From sequence record OY726582: a stretch of DNA of 64,000 nt, one strand, 5' to 3'. Shown one piece after another: positions 5,049-62,733 of the stretch. This stretch comes from Escherichia phage vB_Eco_NicPhage. The position numbers were made by a program, and so were the translations under genes. The notes under the pieces were generated by a model that worked only from the letters and a program-made list of their open reading frames with translations, ran no database searches and had not been told where the DNA came from. The first letter of the stretch is position 1, and every line of letters begins with the position of its first letter.

Positions 5049-5231
5049 TTATAGTGAATTCATGTAGTCAATGAGTTCTTGTTCTTTCCTGTCAAATGAT
5101 TCCAACAATGCTTGATATTCTTCGTCCGTCAAAGGAGCATATTCATCATACGCATTGGTGGCTGCTTGCTCATCCAATAGGTCATGGATAAGTTCAAACA
5201 GTTTAGTTTTCTCTTCTTTAGTCAATTTCAT
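5049..5231 (-). CDS. hypothetical protein (tk.1 position)
   Basis: 60 aa acidic ORF; SD AAGGTGA. Confidence 0.45.
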   Translation of the reverse strand: MKLTKEEKTKLFELIHDLLDEQAATNAYDEYAPLTDEEYQALLESFDRKEQELIDYMNSL

Positions 5232-5440
5232 TTAGGTTCACCTTCTTTAACGAAATCTGGGTAAGGGTAAAATCCTGAGTAAAACCCTTCACCTTTATGA
5301 TTGCTACAACCTTTGTTCGAACAGTAACACCAATAATCAAAATCACAAGCCATTTCGTCATTGCATAAAGCAAAAACTACAGGCCATTCGCATTTTTCGC
5401 ATTTAGCACCTGTAAGAATTTTTGTTTGACTCATAGCCAT
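5228..5440 (-). CDS. Cys-rich (zinc-binding?) small protein
   Basis: Track ORF 5228..5455 starts at TTG; ATG at 5440 (MAMSQ) has SD AAAGGTGA; multiple CxxC pairs. Confidence 0.45.
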   Translation of the reverse strand: MAMSQTKILTGAKCEKCEWPVVFALCNDEMACDFDYWCYCSNKGCSNHKGEGFYSGFYPYPDFVKEGEPK

Positions 5441-5643
5441 GTCACCTTTAAGCAATATTCTTCTACATGTTGTTTACGGCCTTTCTTATCAATAAAGGTA
5501 TATTCAACGAATGTTCCGATGTAGTCTTTATCTACATCATGTGGACTATTAATTGGACATTTAGTACGACAAATGCGTTCCCATTGACGAATAATTACTG
5601 CCTTATTCTTTGGATCGTATGGATGTGGATAATGTATATTCAT
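5431..5643 (-). CDS. hypothetical protein
   Basis: Track ORF 5431..5658 starts at TTG; internal ATG (MNIHYP) overlaps stop of upstream gene. Confidence 0.4.
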   Translation of the reverse strand: MNIHYPHPYDPKNKAVIIRQWERICRTKCPINSPHDVDKDYIGTFVEYTFIDKKGRKQHVEEYCLKVTWL

Positions 5644-20043: not shown

Positions 20044-20120
<77 letters not shown>

Positions 20121-20123
20121 GAT

Positions 20124-20200
20124 TGGTGACCCAGACCAGATTCGAACTGGTAACCTTTCCCTTATGAGGGGACTGCTGCTAACCGTTGAGCTACAGGGCC
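20124..20200 (-). tRNA. tRNA with CAU anticodon (Ile2-type or Met)
   Basis: 77-nt cloverleaf: GGCCCTG acceptor, anticodon loop CUCAUAA, T-arm ACCAG-TTCGAAT-CTGGT, encoded CCA; 5' half resembles E. coli ileX as recalled. Confidence 0.75.
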
Positions 20201-41578: not shown

Positions 41579-42505
41579 ATGTCAGGTTATAATGCACAAA
41601 ACCCTAAAGAATTAAAGGATGTAATATTACGTCGTTTAGGCGCTCCTATTGTAAATGTTGAATTAACTACGGACCAAATTTATGATTGTATTTCACGAGC
41701 GTTAGAACTTTATGGCGAATACCATTTTGACGGGTTGAATAAAGGTTTCCATGTATTTTTTGTTGATGACGAAGAAAAATACCGTCACGGCGTATTTGAT
41801 ATGCGTGGTTCTAACGTATTTGCCGTAACAAGAATTATAAGAACAAATGTTGGCTCTATTACTTCAATGGATGGTAATGCAACTTATCCATGGTTCACCG
41901 ATTTCCTTTTAGGAATGGCTGGTGTTTCAGGTGGTATGGGTAGTAATTGTGGTAAATTCTACGGCCCAAACGCTTTTGGCGCTGACCTCGGGTATTATTC
42001 TCAATTAGTATCTTATATGGGTATGCTTCAAGATATGATTGCTCCTCTTCCAGATTTTTGGTTTAACTCTGCAAACGAGCAATTAAAAGTAATGGGTAAC
42101 TTTAGACAGAAAGATGTCATTATCGTTGAATCGTATGTTCGCTCTTATATCGAGACCCATAAGATGGTAGGAAATACAGTAGGGTACGGTCAGGTTGGTC
42201 CTCGTGATTCATGGTCTATTTCTGAACGTTATGATAATCCAGACCATAATTTGGTAGGACGTCGAGTTGGTGAAGATCCTGCAACTAAACAAGGCGCATA
42301 TAACAACCGCTGGGTTAAAGATTATGCAACTGCATTAGCTAAAGAGCTTAATGGACAAATTCTTGCTAAACATCAAGGTATGATGTTACCTGGTGGCGTC
42401 ACTGTTGATGGTGTTCGATTAATTGAAGAAGCTCGTTTAGAGAAAGAAGCTTTACGAGAAGAGTTATATTTACTGGACCCTCCTGCAGGTATTTTGGTAG
42501 GTTAA
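41579..42505 (+). CDS. 13: neck protein gp13
   Basis: 308 aa; synteny. Confidence 0.9.
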
Positions 42506-42506
42506 T

Positions 42507-43142
42507 ATGGCAACATACTACAGATTGTATATTACAACATTTGAAACATCCACCGGTATAAAGATTTATGGTGGTAAACACAAATCAGTTTACGAAGACC
42601 CTTCAAAAGACCCTTATACTGGGTCTGGTACCTTTATACGAAGGGCCAAAAGAAAATACGGTCCGTCTTGTATAAAAGAAATTATATGGTCTAAGCCATT
42701 TGAATCTAAAGCTCTAATGGACGAAGCTGAAGAGTTACTGGTAGATGAATTATCCATTTTAGAAAATTGCGCAAATCTTGTTAAAGGTGGTGCAGGCGGA
42801 AGGTCGTATATTAACCCAGAAGATAATCCATCTATAGGACAAAAACGTTCAGCCCAATCTAAAAAGAAAATGTCTGACGCCGCAAAATCAAGAAAATGGA
42901 CTGAAGAAGGGTTAAGAAAACGTAAAGAATCTACAGCAAGAATGTGGAAAGATTTCAAACATAGACATCCTGATTTTTCTGGTTCAAAAAATCCGGCAGC
43001 TCGAAAAGTTAGTGTAAATGGTAAAATATTTAACACCTGCAAAGAATGTGGTGAAGAATTTAATATCACATCAAGCGCGGTTATAGGCCGATGCAAAAAC
43101 AACAAACCTAAATGGGCAGGATGGAATTATGTCGACGTATAA
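42507..43142 (+). CDS. GIY-YIG family homing endonuclease (Seg-like), inserted between genes 13 and 14
   Basis: 211 aa; N-terminal YRLYITTF...GIKIYGGKH resembles the GIY-YIG module; basic C-terminal region with CKECG; ATG 2 nt after gp13 stop; 3' end overlaps gp14 start. Confidence 0.65.
42507..43142 (+). mobile_element. freestanding homing endonuclease gene (HEG) insertion
   Basis: Extra ORF relative to T4, where 13 and 14 are adjacent; GIY-YIG-like N-terminus. Confidence 0.55.
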
Positions 43143-43893
43143 TTCAAATTTATTTGCAAAGTTAGAAAACCGAGAAGGCTATTCTAAAACTAATGAAACC
43201 GAGATTTTAAACAAATACGTGAACTTCAACAAATACGAAAATAGTCAAACCCTAGCTGATGTGTTAGTAGCAGAAAGCATACAGATGCGCGGTATTGAAT
43301 GTTTTTATGTTCCACGTGAATATGTTGCCGTGGACCTTATCTTTGGTGAGGACCTTAAAAATAAATTTACTAAAGCATGGAAATTTGCTGCATATCTGAA
43401 CTCTTTTGAAGGTTATGAAGGAGCGAAATCGTTCTTCAGCAACTTCGGAATGCAAGTTCAAGACGAAGTTACATTATCTATTAACCCAGGTCTTTTCAAA
43501 CACCAGGTCAACAATCAGGAGCCTAAGGAAGGTGATTTAATATACTTCCCAATGGACAACAGTTTGTTTGAGATTAACTGGGTTGAACCATATGACCCAT
43601 TCTATCAAGTAGGTAAAAATGCGATTCGTAAAATTACTGCAGGCAAGTTTATTTACTCTGGCGAAGAAATCAATCCGGTGCTTCAGAAAAATGAAGGTAT
43701 CAATATACCTGAATTTAGTGACTTGGAACTTAACCCTGTTAGAAATCTTGACGGTATCCATGACATTAATATCGATGAATATTCTGAAGTTGAGCAAATC
43801 AATTCAGAGGCAAGTGAATACGTTGAGCCGTATGTAGTAGTTAACAACCGTGGTAGACAAAATTCACCATTTGACGATGGGTTTATGAATTAA
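43129..43893 (+). CDS. 14: neck protein gp14
   Basis: 254 aa; synteny. Confidence 0.9.
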
Positions 43894-43942: not shown

Positions 43943-44894
43943 ATGATGTTTGGTTATTTTTACAACTCGTCGTTCAGGCGATATATCACAATGATGGGCG
44001 ATTTGTTTTCAAATATCCAAGTTAACCGTCAATTGTCTACAGGCAATAAATTAATTAGAGTTCCTATTACGTATGCATCTAAAGAGCACTTTATGATGAA
44101 ACTTAATAAATGGACCTCTATAAACTCACAAGAAGATGTGGCTAAAGTCGAAACTATTCTACCACGTATAAATCTCCAAATGGTGGATTTCGTTTATAAC
44201 CCAACGTTTAAAACGAATATATTGAATAACTCTCTTTTGAGTAAATCGACTAAGGATATTGTAGACCAATACAACCCATCACCAATTAAAATGATTTTTG
44301 AACTGAGCATCTTTACTCGTTATGAAGATGATATGTTCCAAATCGTTGAGCAAATTATTCCATATTTTCAGCCGCATTTTAATACGACTATGATTGAGCA
44401 ATATGGGCAGGATATTCCATTTGAAAGGGATATTAAAGTCGTATGGATGGCAGCAGCAATGGATGAACAAATAGACGGTGATAATTTATCTCGTCGACGT
44501 TTAGAGTGGTCATTAACATTTGAAGTAAATGGATGGATGTATCCTCCGGTAGGCGCAGCTGAAGGCCTTATTAAAACGACTTATCTTGATTTTCATGCTA
44601 AACGGTGATAATTTATCTCGTCGACGTTTAGAGTGGTCATTAACATTTGAAGTAAATGGATGGATGTATCCTCCGGTAGGCGCAGCTGAAGGCCTTATTA
44701 AAACGACTTATCTTGATTTTCATGCTAATGAACGAGACCTTCAAACAGCCGCCAGTGTTTTTGAATCAGTTGATACAGAAATTAAACCGAGAGACGTTGA
44801 AGCACAAGATTGGAATGGTGAAGTTGAACAAACTTATACTCATGATATTCCAATCCCGTCTCCACCAACCCCTCCTGGTCCTAGAAAACAATAA
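43943..44894 (+). pseudogene. 15: gene 15 (tail sheath stabiliser / tail terminator) split by a 127-bp tandem duplication; frames 43943..44608 and 44586..44894
   Basis: The peptide GDNLSRRRLEWSLTFEVNGWMYPPVGAAEGLIKTTYLDFHA occurs at the end of one track ORF and the start of the next in a different frame; removing one copy restores a single ORF of about 274 aa (T4 gp15 about 272 aa). Confidence 0.75.
44475..44728 (+). repeat. perfect tandem direct duplication, 2 x 127 bp, inside gene 15
   Basis: 44475..44601 is identical to 44602..44728 by direct reading; unit length is not a multiple of 3. Confidence 0.9.
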
Positions 44895-59763: not shown

Positions 59764-60432
59764 TTATTTTAATGTTACGAAAGAAGAATTACGAGTTTCA
59801 CGAATTAGAACTGATCCATCGCGATTAATATAATAAATTAAGCTAAATAATGTTTGGTGAGCAGAAGCATGCACAAAACTAGTTGGGCGAGATTTCCAAT
59901 CTGGGGTTTCGGCTATCCATTGATAAATCCACCAAGGAACAGTAACATATCCTGGGCCTTTGCCTAATTTAATGAGTGTAGGACTAAAATTTTCAGGCAG
60001 AACAAATTTTACTTCTTTATTTACCTCTGGCTCCGGCTCTTTTTCAGATTCAACAACCTGAGTAATTGCTTCTTCGAATTTATCATGGTCGAATTCTTTT
60101 TCTTGTTCGACAACTTCTAATACTTCAACTTGTTCTGTTGGAGAATCAAACAACAGAATAGCTTCTTCTTTAACTTCTTCGTTGGTGAAATTAACACCGT
60201 CCACATCATCTGCGGCAGTAATTAAATCGGTGATAGATAATCCATCGGTTTCAGGTAATGGTTCATCAGCCAGTGCGTTAAGAGCTTCTTCGATATCAAT
60301 AACAATATTATCGAATGATTTTGTTTTCTTAACACTAATGCCAAATTGTTCCGCATATTCAAACAGTTTAGCTTTGGCTTCCTTTTTATCAGAAAGAGCA
60401 CGTAACTCTTCAATATAGTCTTTATCGATCAT
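59764..60432 (-). CDS. inh: prohead protease inhibitor Inh
   Basis: 222 aa; synteny hoc-inh-segE-uvsW; SD GAGGAAAT. Confidence 0.75.
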   Translation of the reverse strand: MIDKDYIEELRALSDKKEAKAKLFEYAEQFGISVKKTKSFDNIVIDIEEALNALADEPLPETDGLSITDLITAADDVDGVNFTNEEVKEEAILLFDSPTEQVEVLEVVEQEKEFDHDKFEEAITQVVESEKEPEPEVNKEVKFVLPENFSPTLIKLGKGPGYVTVPWWIYQWIAETPDWKSRPTSFVHASAHQTLFSLIYYINRDGSVLIRETRNSSFVTLK

Positions 60433-60445
60433 GGTATTTCCTCAT

Positions 60446-60453
60446 TATAAATA
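60446..60453 (+). promoter_or_regulatory. late promoter TATAAATA upstream of segE-like/uvsW
   Basis: Exact consensus in inh/segE divergent region. Confidence 0.55.
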
Positions 60454-60481
60454 TAACTATATTTATTACATGGAAAAGAGT

Positions 60482-61213
60482 ATGTATCACTTTGTTTATG
60501 AGACCGTAAATTTAATTAATGGTAAAAAGTACATTGGCAAACATTCTACAGAAAATTTAAATGATTCGTATCTAGGGTCAGGTGTTGCCTTAAATCGCGC
60601 TATCAAAAAATACGGAGAAGAATCATTTAAACGTTCAATAATTAAACAATTTGAAACTTCCGCTGAAGCTTTAGAATACGAAGCTCAGTTAGTAACAGAG
60701 GATTTGGTCAAATCTAACGAGTATTATAATATGCGCCAAGGCGGTGAAGGTGGAAGGTATAAGTACACCGAAGCTGATAAGACTAAAATGTCTAATAGTG
60801 CTAAAGAACGAATAAAGAGGCTTGGTCATAATCTTTTAGGAAAACACAGATCGGAAGAAACAAAAAGAAAACTATCTGAAACAAATAAACGTCGATACTC
60901 TGAAGACCCAACATGCCACGGGCGGTATGGTACAGGAAAGCCAAAGATTGATAAAATTAAAGGTCCTAAAAATCCTACAACTCTAAATAAAATTTGTGTT
61001 AACAACGGTAAAGAAAACAGATTTATATCAGCCGAGGACCCGATGCCTGAAGGATTTGTAAAAGGAATGGTCCAACTTAATAGAAAATCTAGAAAGGGCT
61101 GTGAAGTAAAACCTACGACCACCGGCAGAATATGGGTAAATAACGGGGCTATAAATAAATTAGTAAATCCGTTATCCATCCCAGATGGATATGTTAAAGG
61201 CCGTTTAAGGTAA
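60482..61213 (+). CDS. segE: GIY-YIG homing endonuclease, SegE-like
   Basis: Track ORF 60431..61213; start likely MYHFVYETVN (SD GGAAAAG; alt ATG 60470); GIY-YIG module YHFVYETVN...KYIGKHS and C-terminal NUMOD-like repeats; T4 segE occupies this position. Confidence 0.7.
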   Translation: MYHFVYETVNLINGKKYIGKHSTENLNDSYLGSGVALNRAIKKYGEESFKRSIIKQFETSAEALEYEAQLVTEDLVKSNEYYNMRQGGEGGRYKYTEADKTKMSNSAKERIKRLGHNLLGKHRSEETKRKLSETNKRRYSEDPTCHGRYGTGKPKIDKIKGPKNPTTLNKICVNNGKENRFISAEDPMPEGFVKGMVQLNRKSRKGCEVKPTTTGRIWVNNGAINKLVNPLSIPDGYVKGRLR

Positions 61214-61218
61214 TTATT

Positions 61219-62733
61219 ATGACAGATATTAAAGTACATTTTCACGATTTTAGCCATGTAAGAATTGAATGCGACGAAAGCGTGTTCTATGAATTACGCG
61301 ACTTTTTTAGCTTTGAAGCCGATGGGTACAAATTCAACCCGCGTTACAAATATGGGAACTGGGATGGTAGAATTCGACTTTTAGATTACAACCGTTTGTT
61401 ACCATATGGACTTGTAGGACAAATAAAAAAGTTCTGTAGCAATATGAGTTATTCTGTATGGGTTGACCCTAAAATCTTTGAGACCGAAGACCTTACCAGA
61501 GAAGATTTTGACGCATGGCTTTCTAAACAAGAAATTTATTCGGGCAACGCCAAAATCGAACCACATTGGTATCAAAAAGATGCAGTATATGAAGGACTAG
61601 TTAATCGTCGTCGAATTTTAAACCTTCCGACATCAGCAGGTAAATCACTAATCCAAGCACTTTTAGCTCGATATTATCTAGAGAACTATGAAGGTAAAAT
61701 TCTCATTATCGTCCCTACAACAGCATTGACAACCCAGATGGCTAATGATTTTGTTGATTATCGCTTGTTTAGTCATTCGATGATTAAGAAAATTGGCGGT
61801 GGTGCTGATAAAGCAGACAAATCTAAAAACGACGCTCCAATTATTGTTGGCACATGGCAAACAGTAGTTAAGCAGCCTAAAGAATGGTTCTCTCAGTTCG
61901 GTATGATGATGAACGATGAATGCCACTTAGCAACAGGCAAAAGTATTTCTTCAATCATCGCAGGATTAAATAATTGTATGTTTAAATTCGGTTTATCTGG
62001 CTCATTAAGAGACGGAAAGGCCAATGTAATGCAGTACGTAGGTATGTTCGGCGAAATCTTCCGTCCTGTTAGCACGTCTAAATTAATGGAAGATGGACAG
62101 GTAACTGAGCTTAAGATTAATAGTATTTTCCTTCGTTATCCAGACGAATTCGCCACCAAATTAAAAGGTAAAACATACCAAGAAGAAGTTAAAATTATTA
62201 CCGGACTAAAACGACGTACAAAGTGGATTGCTCAACTTTCAGTCAAATTGGCTAAGAAAGACGAGAACGCTTTTGTAATGTTTAAACACGTTACACACGG
62301 TAAAGAAATATTTGAAGCTATTAAAGAGCTTGGATACGAAAAAGTTTATTACGTATCAGGTGAAGTTGATACTGAAACACGTAACGCGCTTAAAGTCATG
62401 GCAGAAAATGGTAAAGGCATTATTATTGTCGCATCATATGGAGTATTCTCTACTGGTATTTCAGTCAAGAATCTTCATCATGTTATTTTTGCCCATGGTG
62501 TTAAATCAAAAATTATCGTACTTCAAACCGTAGGTCGCGTGCTTCGTAAGCATGGTTCTAAATCTGTTGCTACAGTTTGGGATCTCATCGACGATGCAGG
62601 TGTAAAACCTAAATCATTAAATACTAAAAAGAAGTATACTCATCTTAATTACTTGTTAAAACACGGTATTGATCGTATCCAACGTTACGCTGATGAGAAA
62701 TTTAACTATGTAATGAAAACAATTAATTTATAA
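61219..62733 (+). CDS. uvsW: UvsW RNA-DNA / DNA-DNA helicase
   Basis: 504 aa; SF2 helicase motifs (PTSAGKS, DECH); strong similarity to T4 UvsW N-terminus as recalled. Confidence 0.9.
   Translation: MTDIKVHFHDFSHVRIECDESVFYELRDFFSFEADGYKFNPRYKYGNWDGRIRLLDYNRLLPYGLVGQIKKFCSNMSYSVWVDPKIFETEDLTREDFDAWLSKQEIYSGNAKIEPHWYQKDAVYEGLVNRRRILNLPTSAGKSLIQALLARYYLENYEGKILIIVPTTALTTQMANDFVDYRLFSHSMIKKIGGGADKADKSKNDAPIIVGTWQTVVKQPKEWFSQFGMMMNDECHLATGKSISSIIAGLNNCMFKFGLSGSLRDGKANVMQYVGMFGEIFRPVSTSKLMEDGQVTELKINSIFLRYPDEFATKLKGKTYQEEVKIITGLKRRTKWIAQLSVKLAKKDENAFVMFKHVTHGKEIFEAIKELGYEKVYYVSGEVDTETRNALKVMAENGKGIIIVASYGVFSTGISVKNLHHVIFAHGVKSKIIVLQTVGRVLRKHGSKSVATVWDLIDDAGVKPKSLNTKKKYTHLNYLLKHGIDRIQRYADEKFNYVMKTINL

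Follow-up and report, generated by a model that had tools for sequence, protein, structure and literature searches.

Organization of the gene 13/14 junction

The DNA analyzed here is a 64,000-nucleotide stretch from Escherichia phage vB_Eco_NicPhage (sequence record OY726582), a T4-like phage of the genus Mosigvirus, and is referred to below as the window. Its sequence and ORFs revealed a free-standing Seg-like GIY-YIG homing endonuclease gene (HEG) on the plus strand at 42507..43142, which starts with ATG and encodes a protein of 211 aa. On its left lies gene 13 (41579..42505, plus strand), coding for neck protein gp13/head-tail adaptor (PHROG 211 'head-tail adaptor Ad2', E 2.2e-43) and also annotated as such in the records of relatives. 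On its right lies gene 14 (43129..43893, plus strand), the putative target gene, which codes for neck protein gp14/head closure and was recognized by PHROG 679 and by Pfam T4_neck-protein (PF11649, E 2e-127). Both flanking genes are complete ORFs. The gp13 stop codon TAA occupies 42503-42505 and a single base, T at 42506, precedes the HEG ATG at 42507; at the other end, the HEG overlaps gene 14 by 14 nt (43129-43142). T4 and HEG-less Mosigviruses have gene 14 immediately after gene 13, in the arrangement TAA-T-ATG. A preliminary description of the window had reported the position and 211-aa length of the ORF, its N-terminal strings and a CKECG string, the overlap with the gp14 start and the adjacency of the two neck genes in T4; each of these was confirmed, the last in T4 itself. 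The ORF is far beyond what is expected by chance: its entire length matched PHROG 314 'homing endonuclease' (E 2.6e-37), and, compared with some 140 close relatives, it stands out as a discrete insertion of 622 bp.

No group I or group II intron was detected by Rfam in the 64-kb window. The HEG is therefore free-standing, and an intron-encoded HEG was ruled out. In addition, the T4 late-promoter motif TATAAATA was absent from the plus strand between 35142 and 47213, and the cassette is therefore promoter-less. A late or middle promoter of its own was rejected on the grounds that no TATAAATA occurred in the 7 kb upstream (plus strand) and that variants with one mismatch were located solely within coding sequence; sigma-70-like hits were at chance level (19 found versus 18.6 expected). 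Several T4 seg and mob genes are likewise promoter-less (PMC2988022). Regulatory RNA hairpins were also considered and discarded, because the HEG start (z +1.27) and the relocated gene 14 start (z -0.47) were not better than shuffled sequences.

A separate feature of the window was observed in gene 15, which is frameshifted by an exact 127-nt tandem duplication (44475-44601 and 44602-44728). This duplication was absent from 510 related records, and its removal restores an intact gp15 of 273 aa. Since 127 is the largest default SPAdes k-mer, the duplication is most likely an assembly artefact. A link between the HEG and this duplication was ruled out, given that the repeat is exactly 127 nt long, is unique to this sequence and fits such an artefact.

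Domain organization of the encoded protein

The GIY-YIG catalytic domain comprises approximately residues 1-95 (42507..42791, plus strand), with the arrangement beta(4-14)-beta(17-27)-alpha(42-51)-beta(56-61)-alpha(68-82). An AlphaFold2 model had a mean pLDDT of 82.7 (approximately 90 in the N-terminal domain), and its secondary structure begins with a beta-beta-alpha-beta-alpha unit, after which residues 93-99 form a disordered hinge that leads to two basic helices and a small domain at the C-terminus. The core topology of GIY-YIG nucleases, a three-stranded beta-sheet flanked by helices, was present, and the fold match of the protein was 1ln0.

Profile libraries gave partial answers. The window protein had no hit to the Pfam GIY-YIG models PF01541 or PF19835 at E <= 1, and the NCBIfam group-I-intron-endonuclease model matched in the C-terminal half alone, far below the cutoff. 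We therefore built alignments of orthologs (12 sequences, 53-64% identity) and of 38 more distant relatives (28-64% identity), besides one of 7 sequences; the 38 relatives were taken from an exhaustive profile search that returned 7100 hits at E <= 1e-3. Among these 38 relatives, PF19835 hit five and PF01541 hit one at E <= 0.01. Twelve residues were invariant in all 38 (Y8, Y21, G23, D35, Y37, G39, G41, G52, E75, N90, G94 and G95), and Y8, located in an R-L-Y motif, and Y21-G22-G23 were invariant in the 7-, 12- and 38-sequence alignments. When the protein was aligned to I-TevI with hhalign, Y21/G23, E75 and N90 were placed opposite I-TevI Y17/G19, E75 and N90. The C-terminal part of the I-TevI sequence used in this comparison was consistent with the alignment to the PDB entry. 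Because both the fold and the catalytic residues are present, the missing match to curated Pfam models is a sensitivity failure of sequence models. Thus, the earlier assignment of the gene to the Seg/I-TevI type of GIY-YIG nucleases was upheld by the 1ln0 fold match and by the invariant Y8, Y21, G23, E75 and N90, in a gene that lacks an intron.

One catalytic position of I-TevI had no evident counterpart. An equivalent of Arg27, which in I-TevI is located in helix alpha1 and is essential for catalysis, was not found, as no Arg was invariant among the 38 relatives, and hhalign set R27 against V28 or a gap. Candidate counterparts include K24/H25/K26 (consensus K-R-H), R46/R47 and K50; of these, the Mosigvirus copy has H25-K26, versus R25-H26 in nearly all orthologs. 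A conserved D-x-Y-x-G-S-G loop appears to take the place of the Arg27 helix of I-TevI.

Downstream of the catalytic domain, a basic linker (42819..42953, plus strand) contains a NUMOD3-like segment at residues 105-123 and, in the AlphaFold2 model, helices at residues 116-128 and 133-149. The NUMOD3 score was below threshold (16.9 bits versus a cutoff of 20.4), and 5 of the 38 relatives matched this model at E <= 0.01. The linker tethers an I-TevI-type C-terminal DNA-binding domain with a helix-turn-helix (HTH). The Pfam model for the I-TevI DNA-binding domain matched residues 159-204, again sub-threshold (22.6 bits versus a cutoff of 27). The CKECG string is located in this region (segment 42975..43130, plus strand), and the preliminary description had viewed it as a Zn-finger-like element. 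We abandoned that interpretation on the basis of Cys conservation and of the alignment to I-TevI: CKECG falls inside the HTH, aligned to I-TevI residues ~185-245; C55, C88 and C181 are the only invariant Cys residues in orthologs, in which C178 of CKECG is replaced by Gly or Leu; and paired CxxC motifs were absent from HEG orthologs in the 12-sequence alignment.

Insertion anatomy and the recoded 5′ end of gene 14

Compared with HEG-less Mosigviruses, the window carries a 622-bp insertion, placed by MAFFT at 42524..43145 on the plus strand (1851 versus 1229 bp for the whole span). Its boundaries could shift by about 10 nt, since codons 1-5 of gene 14 resemble both junctions. The first four codons of the HEG, ATG GCA ACa TAc (MATY; 42507..42518, plus strand), have their counterpart at the beginning of gene 14 in HEG-less relatives: ATGGCAACTTATGAT is the gp14 start in these phages, exactly at the HEG start position and with the same upstream sequence. 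In four HEG-less relatives, gene 14 opens with ATG GCA ACT TAT GAT AAA where the HEG opens here; the last 60 nt of gene 13 were identical in three of the four and had one mismatch in the fourth, Shf125875. The MATY codons are therefore a captured gene 14 start together with its translation-initiation region. The same start capture was found in Gaprivervirus (RZ versus TH41).

At the 3′ end, a relocated translation-initiation region for gene 14 is embedded in the HEG (43118..43131, plus strand), with AGGA at 43118-43121, a 7-nt spacer and the ATG at 43129. The C-terminal HEG codons TGG AAT TAT G (W-N-Y) form this new ATG, and the W-N-Y/ATG junction is kept in the Mosig-, Gapri- and Slopekvirus lineages and in metagenomic orthologs. 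As these comparisons show, the nuclease ORF has taken over the start codon of gene 14, its upstream translation signals and its first four codons. The W-N-Y codons and the internal AGGA provide a replacement start, and essential gene 14 thus stays expressed.

Immediately beyond this junction, the 5′ end of gene 14 contains a recoded patch (43129..43176, plus strand), which has 16 substitutions in 48 nt relative to the closest HEG-less relative. Nine of these fall in synonymous codons and seven in four replaced residues (A2S, D5N, K6S and G16E). On either side, background divergence stays under 1%, and onward from +48 the window matches HEG-less Mosigvirus at 72 of 72 positions. The patch is fixed in nine of the ten HEG+ genomes compared, JM10 differing solely at 43170. 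Its core shares 26 of 28 positions with gene 14 of Edwardsiella phage PEi20, a Kanagawavirus that lacks the HEG, whereas the patch is identical to the Mosigvirus allele at only 32 of 48; it therefore looks like donor flank that was imported with the HEG, and on this sequence comparison the source looks to be a different T4-like lineage.

The 13/14 junction sequence is near-identical in T4, Mosigvirus and Kanagawavirus, and is therefore a typical conserved HEG target. We consider it likely that the target is this conserved junction plus the beginning of gene 14, at about -20 to +50 relative to the gene 14 ATG, and the comparative data point to the 13/14 junction of HEG-less relatives that the preliminary description had proposed. 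The patch would then show where HEG-less alleles are recognized and cleaved, and would underlie self-immunity, although it could be mere hitch-hiking donor flank rather than a recognition site.

Distribution, linkage and selection

Occurrence of the insert is limited. It was present in 12 of approximately 153 Mosigvirus records, and in about 140 records the gene was missing and the 13-14 region was 622 bp shorter. Carriers were also detected in Gaprivervirus (9/38), Slopekvirus (16/152) and Krischvirus (several). Orthologs in these three genera occupy the same junction and are associated with the same recoding. Genomic context was examined for eight family members, including RZ, phT4A, Kiwi and four metagenomic/isolate contigs, and all were located between gp13 and gp14. 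A scan of IMG/VR for additional loci returned three.

Comparison of HEG+ and HEG- pairs revealed that the first 50-90 nt of gene 14 are densely recoded in Gaprivervirus, Slopekvirus and Krischvirus. Mismatches per successive 30-nt bin of gene 14 were 10, 6, 0, 0, 3, 0... in Mosigvirus; 10, 2, 9, 0... in Gaprivervirus RZ; 8, 12, 7, 0... and 7, 15, 6, 0... in Slopekvirus phT4A and Kiwi, respectively; and 12, 6, 3, 10, 3, 0... in Krischvirus Phi1. In Makalu_002, an unrelated 'SegB-like' HEG is found at the same junction, and gene 14 divergence is located at +120..+330. An ancestral HEG followed by multiple precise losses was rejected as less parsimonious, as HEG-less alleles carry the native, pan-genus gene 14 start shared with T4 and the HEG+ patch is foreign.

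Linkage was assessed in ten HEG+ Mosigviruses. Gene 13 SNP backgrounds differ among these phages up to 42487, 20 nt from the junction. On the other side, a HEG-linked haplotype extends downstream of the patch (43177..43269, plus strand), and the table of variable sites showed that this tract ends at different places: at ~43240-43248 in S143_2, moskry and RPN187, at 43257-43263 in JM10, and beyond 43269 in the window and in F2, 308Ecol101PP, mogra, phiEC1 and SQ17. Such a pattern is the one that variable co-conversion tracts on differing recipient backgrounds would give; it could also come from ordinary recombination after a single acquisition.

The ORF was intact in every copy. Within the HEG, 14 sites were variable among the ten copies, 12 of them synonymous and 2 nonsynonymous, and dN/dS was 0.04 and 0.11 in close ortholog pairs, values that indicate purifying selection on the HEG ORF.

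Relationship to known homing endonucleases

I-TevI, the GIY-YIG enzyme of the T4 td intron, differs from the HEG protein in several respects. It is intron-encoded, whereas the HEG is free-standing; its linker contains a zinc finger, which the HEG linker lacks; and in place of the GIY and YIG motifs, the HEG protein has R-L-Y and Y-G-G, in a beta-hairpin that is two residues longer. A zinc finger in the linker, while present in I-TevI, is not universal in Seg proteins.

The closest paralog in T4 is SegC, with which 92% of the length could be aligned at 33% identity (E 4e-9). The two proteins share D-x-Y-x-GSG and KKYG motifs and the C-terminal HTH, and both genes are promoter-less cassettes that rely on upstream transcription (PMC2988022). 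However, segC is located at 5.1/5.3 and the HEG at 13/14. Because the genomic sites differ, the targets must differ as well, and this difference in site, together with the 33% identity, rules out orthology with SegC. HEGs at the 13/14 junction have been annotated as 'segC' since 2007-2010, in Phi1 (EF437941) and SP18 (GQ981382); VR26, phT4A and others also have orthologs or analogs annotated there. For Phi1 and SP18, the name 'segC' is a misnomer, a similarity label rather than a statement of orthology. The 13/14 gene of Phi1 is only 29% identical to the HEG and represents a different Seg lineage at the same junction.

The HEG resembles T4 SegE, SegF, SegG and SegB in its mode of occurrence. 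Like them, it is a free-standing Seg-type gene beside a conserved essential gene, shows presence/absence polymorphism, and is accompanied in HEG+ genomes by what appear to be a diverged target and variable co-conversion tracts, for which there is precedent (PMC2330249, PMC2988022). For these four enzymes, homing with co-conversion of flanking markers was demonstrated experimentally (PMC2330249, PMC2988022). Unlike the HEG, none of the four occupies the 13/14 site, and the HEG ORF is distinct in that it has been attached to the start codon of its downstream neighbor, which receives a new one from it. The statement in the preliminary description that 13/14 is not a T4 seg site is borne out by the table of seven T4 seg sites, from which 13/14 is absent (PMC2988022), and, as was also stated there, the window has no SegC- or SegD-type gene, either close to gene 5 or in the interval between 23 and 24. 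Reviews name no seg site of T4 at 13/14 and count one seg-like gene in phi-1 (PMC2988022, PMC2993671). A second Seg-type gene, missed by the preliminary description, is present in the window at the T4 segE site upstream of uvsW (60431..61213).

The suggestion that the gene might be undescribed did not hold. The identical gene is annotated at this position in 12 deposited genomes, variously as 'homing endonuclease', 'GIY-YIG endonuclease' or 'putative endonuclease', which is what the preliminary description itself had named as evidence against novelty. These Mosigvirus copies (F2, mogra, moskry, SQ17, RPN187 and others) have at least 99% nucleotide identity and the same position and junctions. 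Orthologs with 53-64% identity and the same W-N-Y/ATG junction occur in Gaprivervirus SP18, VR26 and RZ, in Slopekvirus phT4A and in Krischvirus G5211. The HEG is an uncharacterised member of a well-known class, and no cleavage or homing experiments on the 13/14 HEG were found in the literature searched.

Homing model and alternative explanations

Taken on the comparative evidence, it is quite likely that the locus encodes a two-domain I-TevI/Seg-type nuclease, borne by a promoter-less cassette of 622 bp within the late neck operon, that homes into the gene 14 start of HEG-less relatives. The element is real and probably mobile. From the observed anatomy, distribution, recoding and selection, we infer cleavage, target position and immunity as follows. 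In a mixed infection, the HTH of the late-expressed enzyme would bind the uninterrupted 13/14 junction and the beginning of gene 14 in the HEG-less genome, and the tethered GIY-YIG domain would cut near the bound site. The break would be repaired by recombination from the HEG+ genome, which would copy in the cassette along with gene 14 sequence of variable length. The HEG+ genome itself would be protected, because the insertion interrupts its site and gene 14 is recoded over its first 48 nt. By the same route, this family of elements has probably spread through at least four genera.

A less favorable possibility is that the gene is a decaying or domesticated remnant, which was acquired once by the ancestor of the 12 phages and no longer cleaves, its patchy occurrence being due to recombination and loss. 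Several features fit this explanation, including the unmatched curated GIY-YIG models, the lack of an identifiable Arg27 equivalent, the R25H/H26K changes of the Mosigvirus copy relative to orthologs and the very small differences between the 12 copies, as a single recent acquisition could have produced. However, this reading is weakened by an ORF that is intact everywhere and under purifying selection, with five catalytic residues (Y8, Y21, G23, E75 and N90) invariant. In addition, the same element occurs on different gene 13 backgrounds with different downstream tract ends, and the HEG+/HEG- polymorphism recurs in four genera. We regard the remnant as distinctly improbable; the comparative evidence points to active homing.

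The nuclease could also be active and yet cleave at a distant site, deeper in gene 14 or in gene 13, in which case the patch would be donor DNA from an illegitimate or homeologous acquisition. For characterised Seg enzymes such as SegF and SegG, the cut is often hundreds of bp away from where the gene is inserted. The near-identity of the patch core to a HEG-less Kanagawavirus allele is what would be expected of an ordinary foreign gene 14, a further small HEG-linked cluster is located at 43263-43269, and the divergence linked to the unrelated HEG of Makalu_002 lies well inside gene 14. On the other hand, four genera independently show the densest recoding in the first 50-90 nt beside the HEG and near-identity beyond. 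In Mosigvirus, neither gene 13 nor the remainder of gene 14 carries any further fixed difference linked to the HEG, so that HEG+ genomes would be open to self-cleavage at a distant uncut site. The chances of a distant site appear slim, and a target at the 13/14 junction is preferred.

Finally, that the nuclease is kept mainly for the benefit of the phage, through co-infection exclusion or break-stimulated amplification or recombination, with homing as a by-product, is highly improbable: Seg and Mob enzymes do cause marker exclusion (PMC2988022, PMC2330249), SegB was reported in 2026 to promote segmental amplification of anti-defence loci (PMC13096335), and the HEG is expressed from strong late neck-gene translation signals, but sequence data do not separate such a benefit from plain homing, and the low frequency per genus (~8-25% of records) argues against a strong general advantage.

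Implications

The effect of these findings on genome annotation is small, because a dozen identical copies and many orthologs carry the label homing endonuclease already. Their value lies in a ready experimental system, in which a precise target prediction (~-20..+50 of the gene 14 ATG) is combined with a putative immunity patch of a defined 48 nt, and natural HEG+/HEG- phage pairs are available in four genera. As the site is conserved in T4 too, an uncharacterised Seg family with a new specificity becomes quickly testable. The 13/14 HEG is also relevant for marker exclusion in phage cocktails and for the catalogue of modular GIY-YIG nucleases for engineering, and curated GIY-YIG sequence models miss this 13/14 Seg subfamily. 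Modest extra interest comes from start-codon capture and donation, from the fidelity to one site across genera and from the presence of unrelated Seg lineages (Phi1-type and Makalu_002) at one junction.

A broader idea, which we consider unlikely although worth stating, is that the 13/14 element embodies a conserved 'start-codon swap' architecture, in which an in-frame graft on the initiation signals of an essential gene is combined with a replacement start and a recoded target patch, a design by which one family could co-evolve with, and repeatedly cross among, at least four or five T4-like genera. The only start of gene 14 is located within the 3′ end of the HEG, and imprecise deletions that remove this start would therefore be lethal. 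If the idea is true, this lethality would stabilise the element, and the 13/14 junction, where three unrelated Seg lineages are found in Krischvirus, would be a genuine multi-lineage hotspot for such genes.

Gene 14 sequence around the relocated start

The relocated gene 14 ATG sits inside a short inverted repeat rich in AU at window 43124-43145, GAATTATG-TCGACG-TATAATTC; this repeat was no more stable than shuffled controls. A comparable inverted repeat, GAATTA-TGCG-TAATTC, is present in Gaprivervirus RZ. Just downstream, positions 43150-43152, and the orthologous positions in relatives (loci L006-L009), encode the Leu of 'LFA', a motif conserved in gp14. This codon was TTA in all examined alleles with a homing endonuclease gene (HEG) at the 13/14 junction and CTT or CTG in HEG-less alleles of Mosig-, Slopek- and Krischvirus; TTA is already present in HEG-less Gaprivervirus TH41. 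The 'LFA' Leu codon may contain a key recognition base.

Gene 15 duplication

In gene 15, which encodes the essential tail-sheath stabiliser, a stretch of 127 nt is present as two exact tandem copies (44475-44601 and 44602-44728). The resulting frameshift splits the gene into two ORFs (43943..44608 and 44586..44894); removal of one copy restores an intact gp15 of 273 aa. The duplication was not found in nine HEG-containing relatives examined across the gene 15 region, in a public contig encoding an identical HEG, or in any of 510 matching phage records. Given that 127 is also the largest k-mer that SPAdes uses by default, the duplication is likely to stem from a contig-end overlap that was left untrimmed.

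A second Seg-type gene, tRNA genes and a possible terminase insertion

A second free-standing Seg-type GIY-YIG HEG, encoding 260 aa, was identified on the plus strand at 60431-61213, directly 5′ of uvsW (61219..62733) and preceded by a minus-strand 222-aa ORF and a gene for a Hoc-like Ig/PKD protein; this position is the site of segE in T4. Its product scored above threshold for both curated Pfam models (PF19835 SegE_GIY-YIG, 29.7 bits; PF01541, 25.8 bits), and TATAAATA motifs occur at 60446 and 61150. Rfam matched two adjacent minus-strand tRNA genes (20047-20200) and nothing else in the 64-kb window, in keeping with RB69-like phages, which carry a small tRNA cluster.

In one contig that carries an ortholog of the 13/14 HEG (locus L030; ENA ERZ794940 NODE_84), the adjoining gene for the large terminase (5195-5624 onward) encodes a 999-aa product with terminase domains and a weak LAGLIDADG match, which suggests a candidate intein or HEG insertion in gp17.

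Other Seg lineages at the 13/14 junction

In some Krischviruses, the 13/14 junction holds an unrelated, larger HEG of 271 aa, which is annotated as 'SegB homing endonuclease' in Escherichia phage Ec_Makalu_002 (MN709127.1, 1389-2204) and also occurs in E26 (MN655998.1). The gene 14 divergence tract accompanying this HEG spans +120..+330 instead of +1..+50, a shift which implies that the enzyme would have a different target inside the same gene. Three Seg lineages (Ec_Makalu_002-type, Phi1-type and G5211-type) use this junction within a single genus, Krischvirus.
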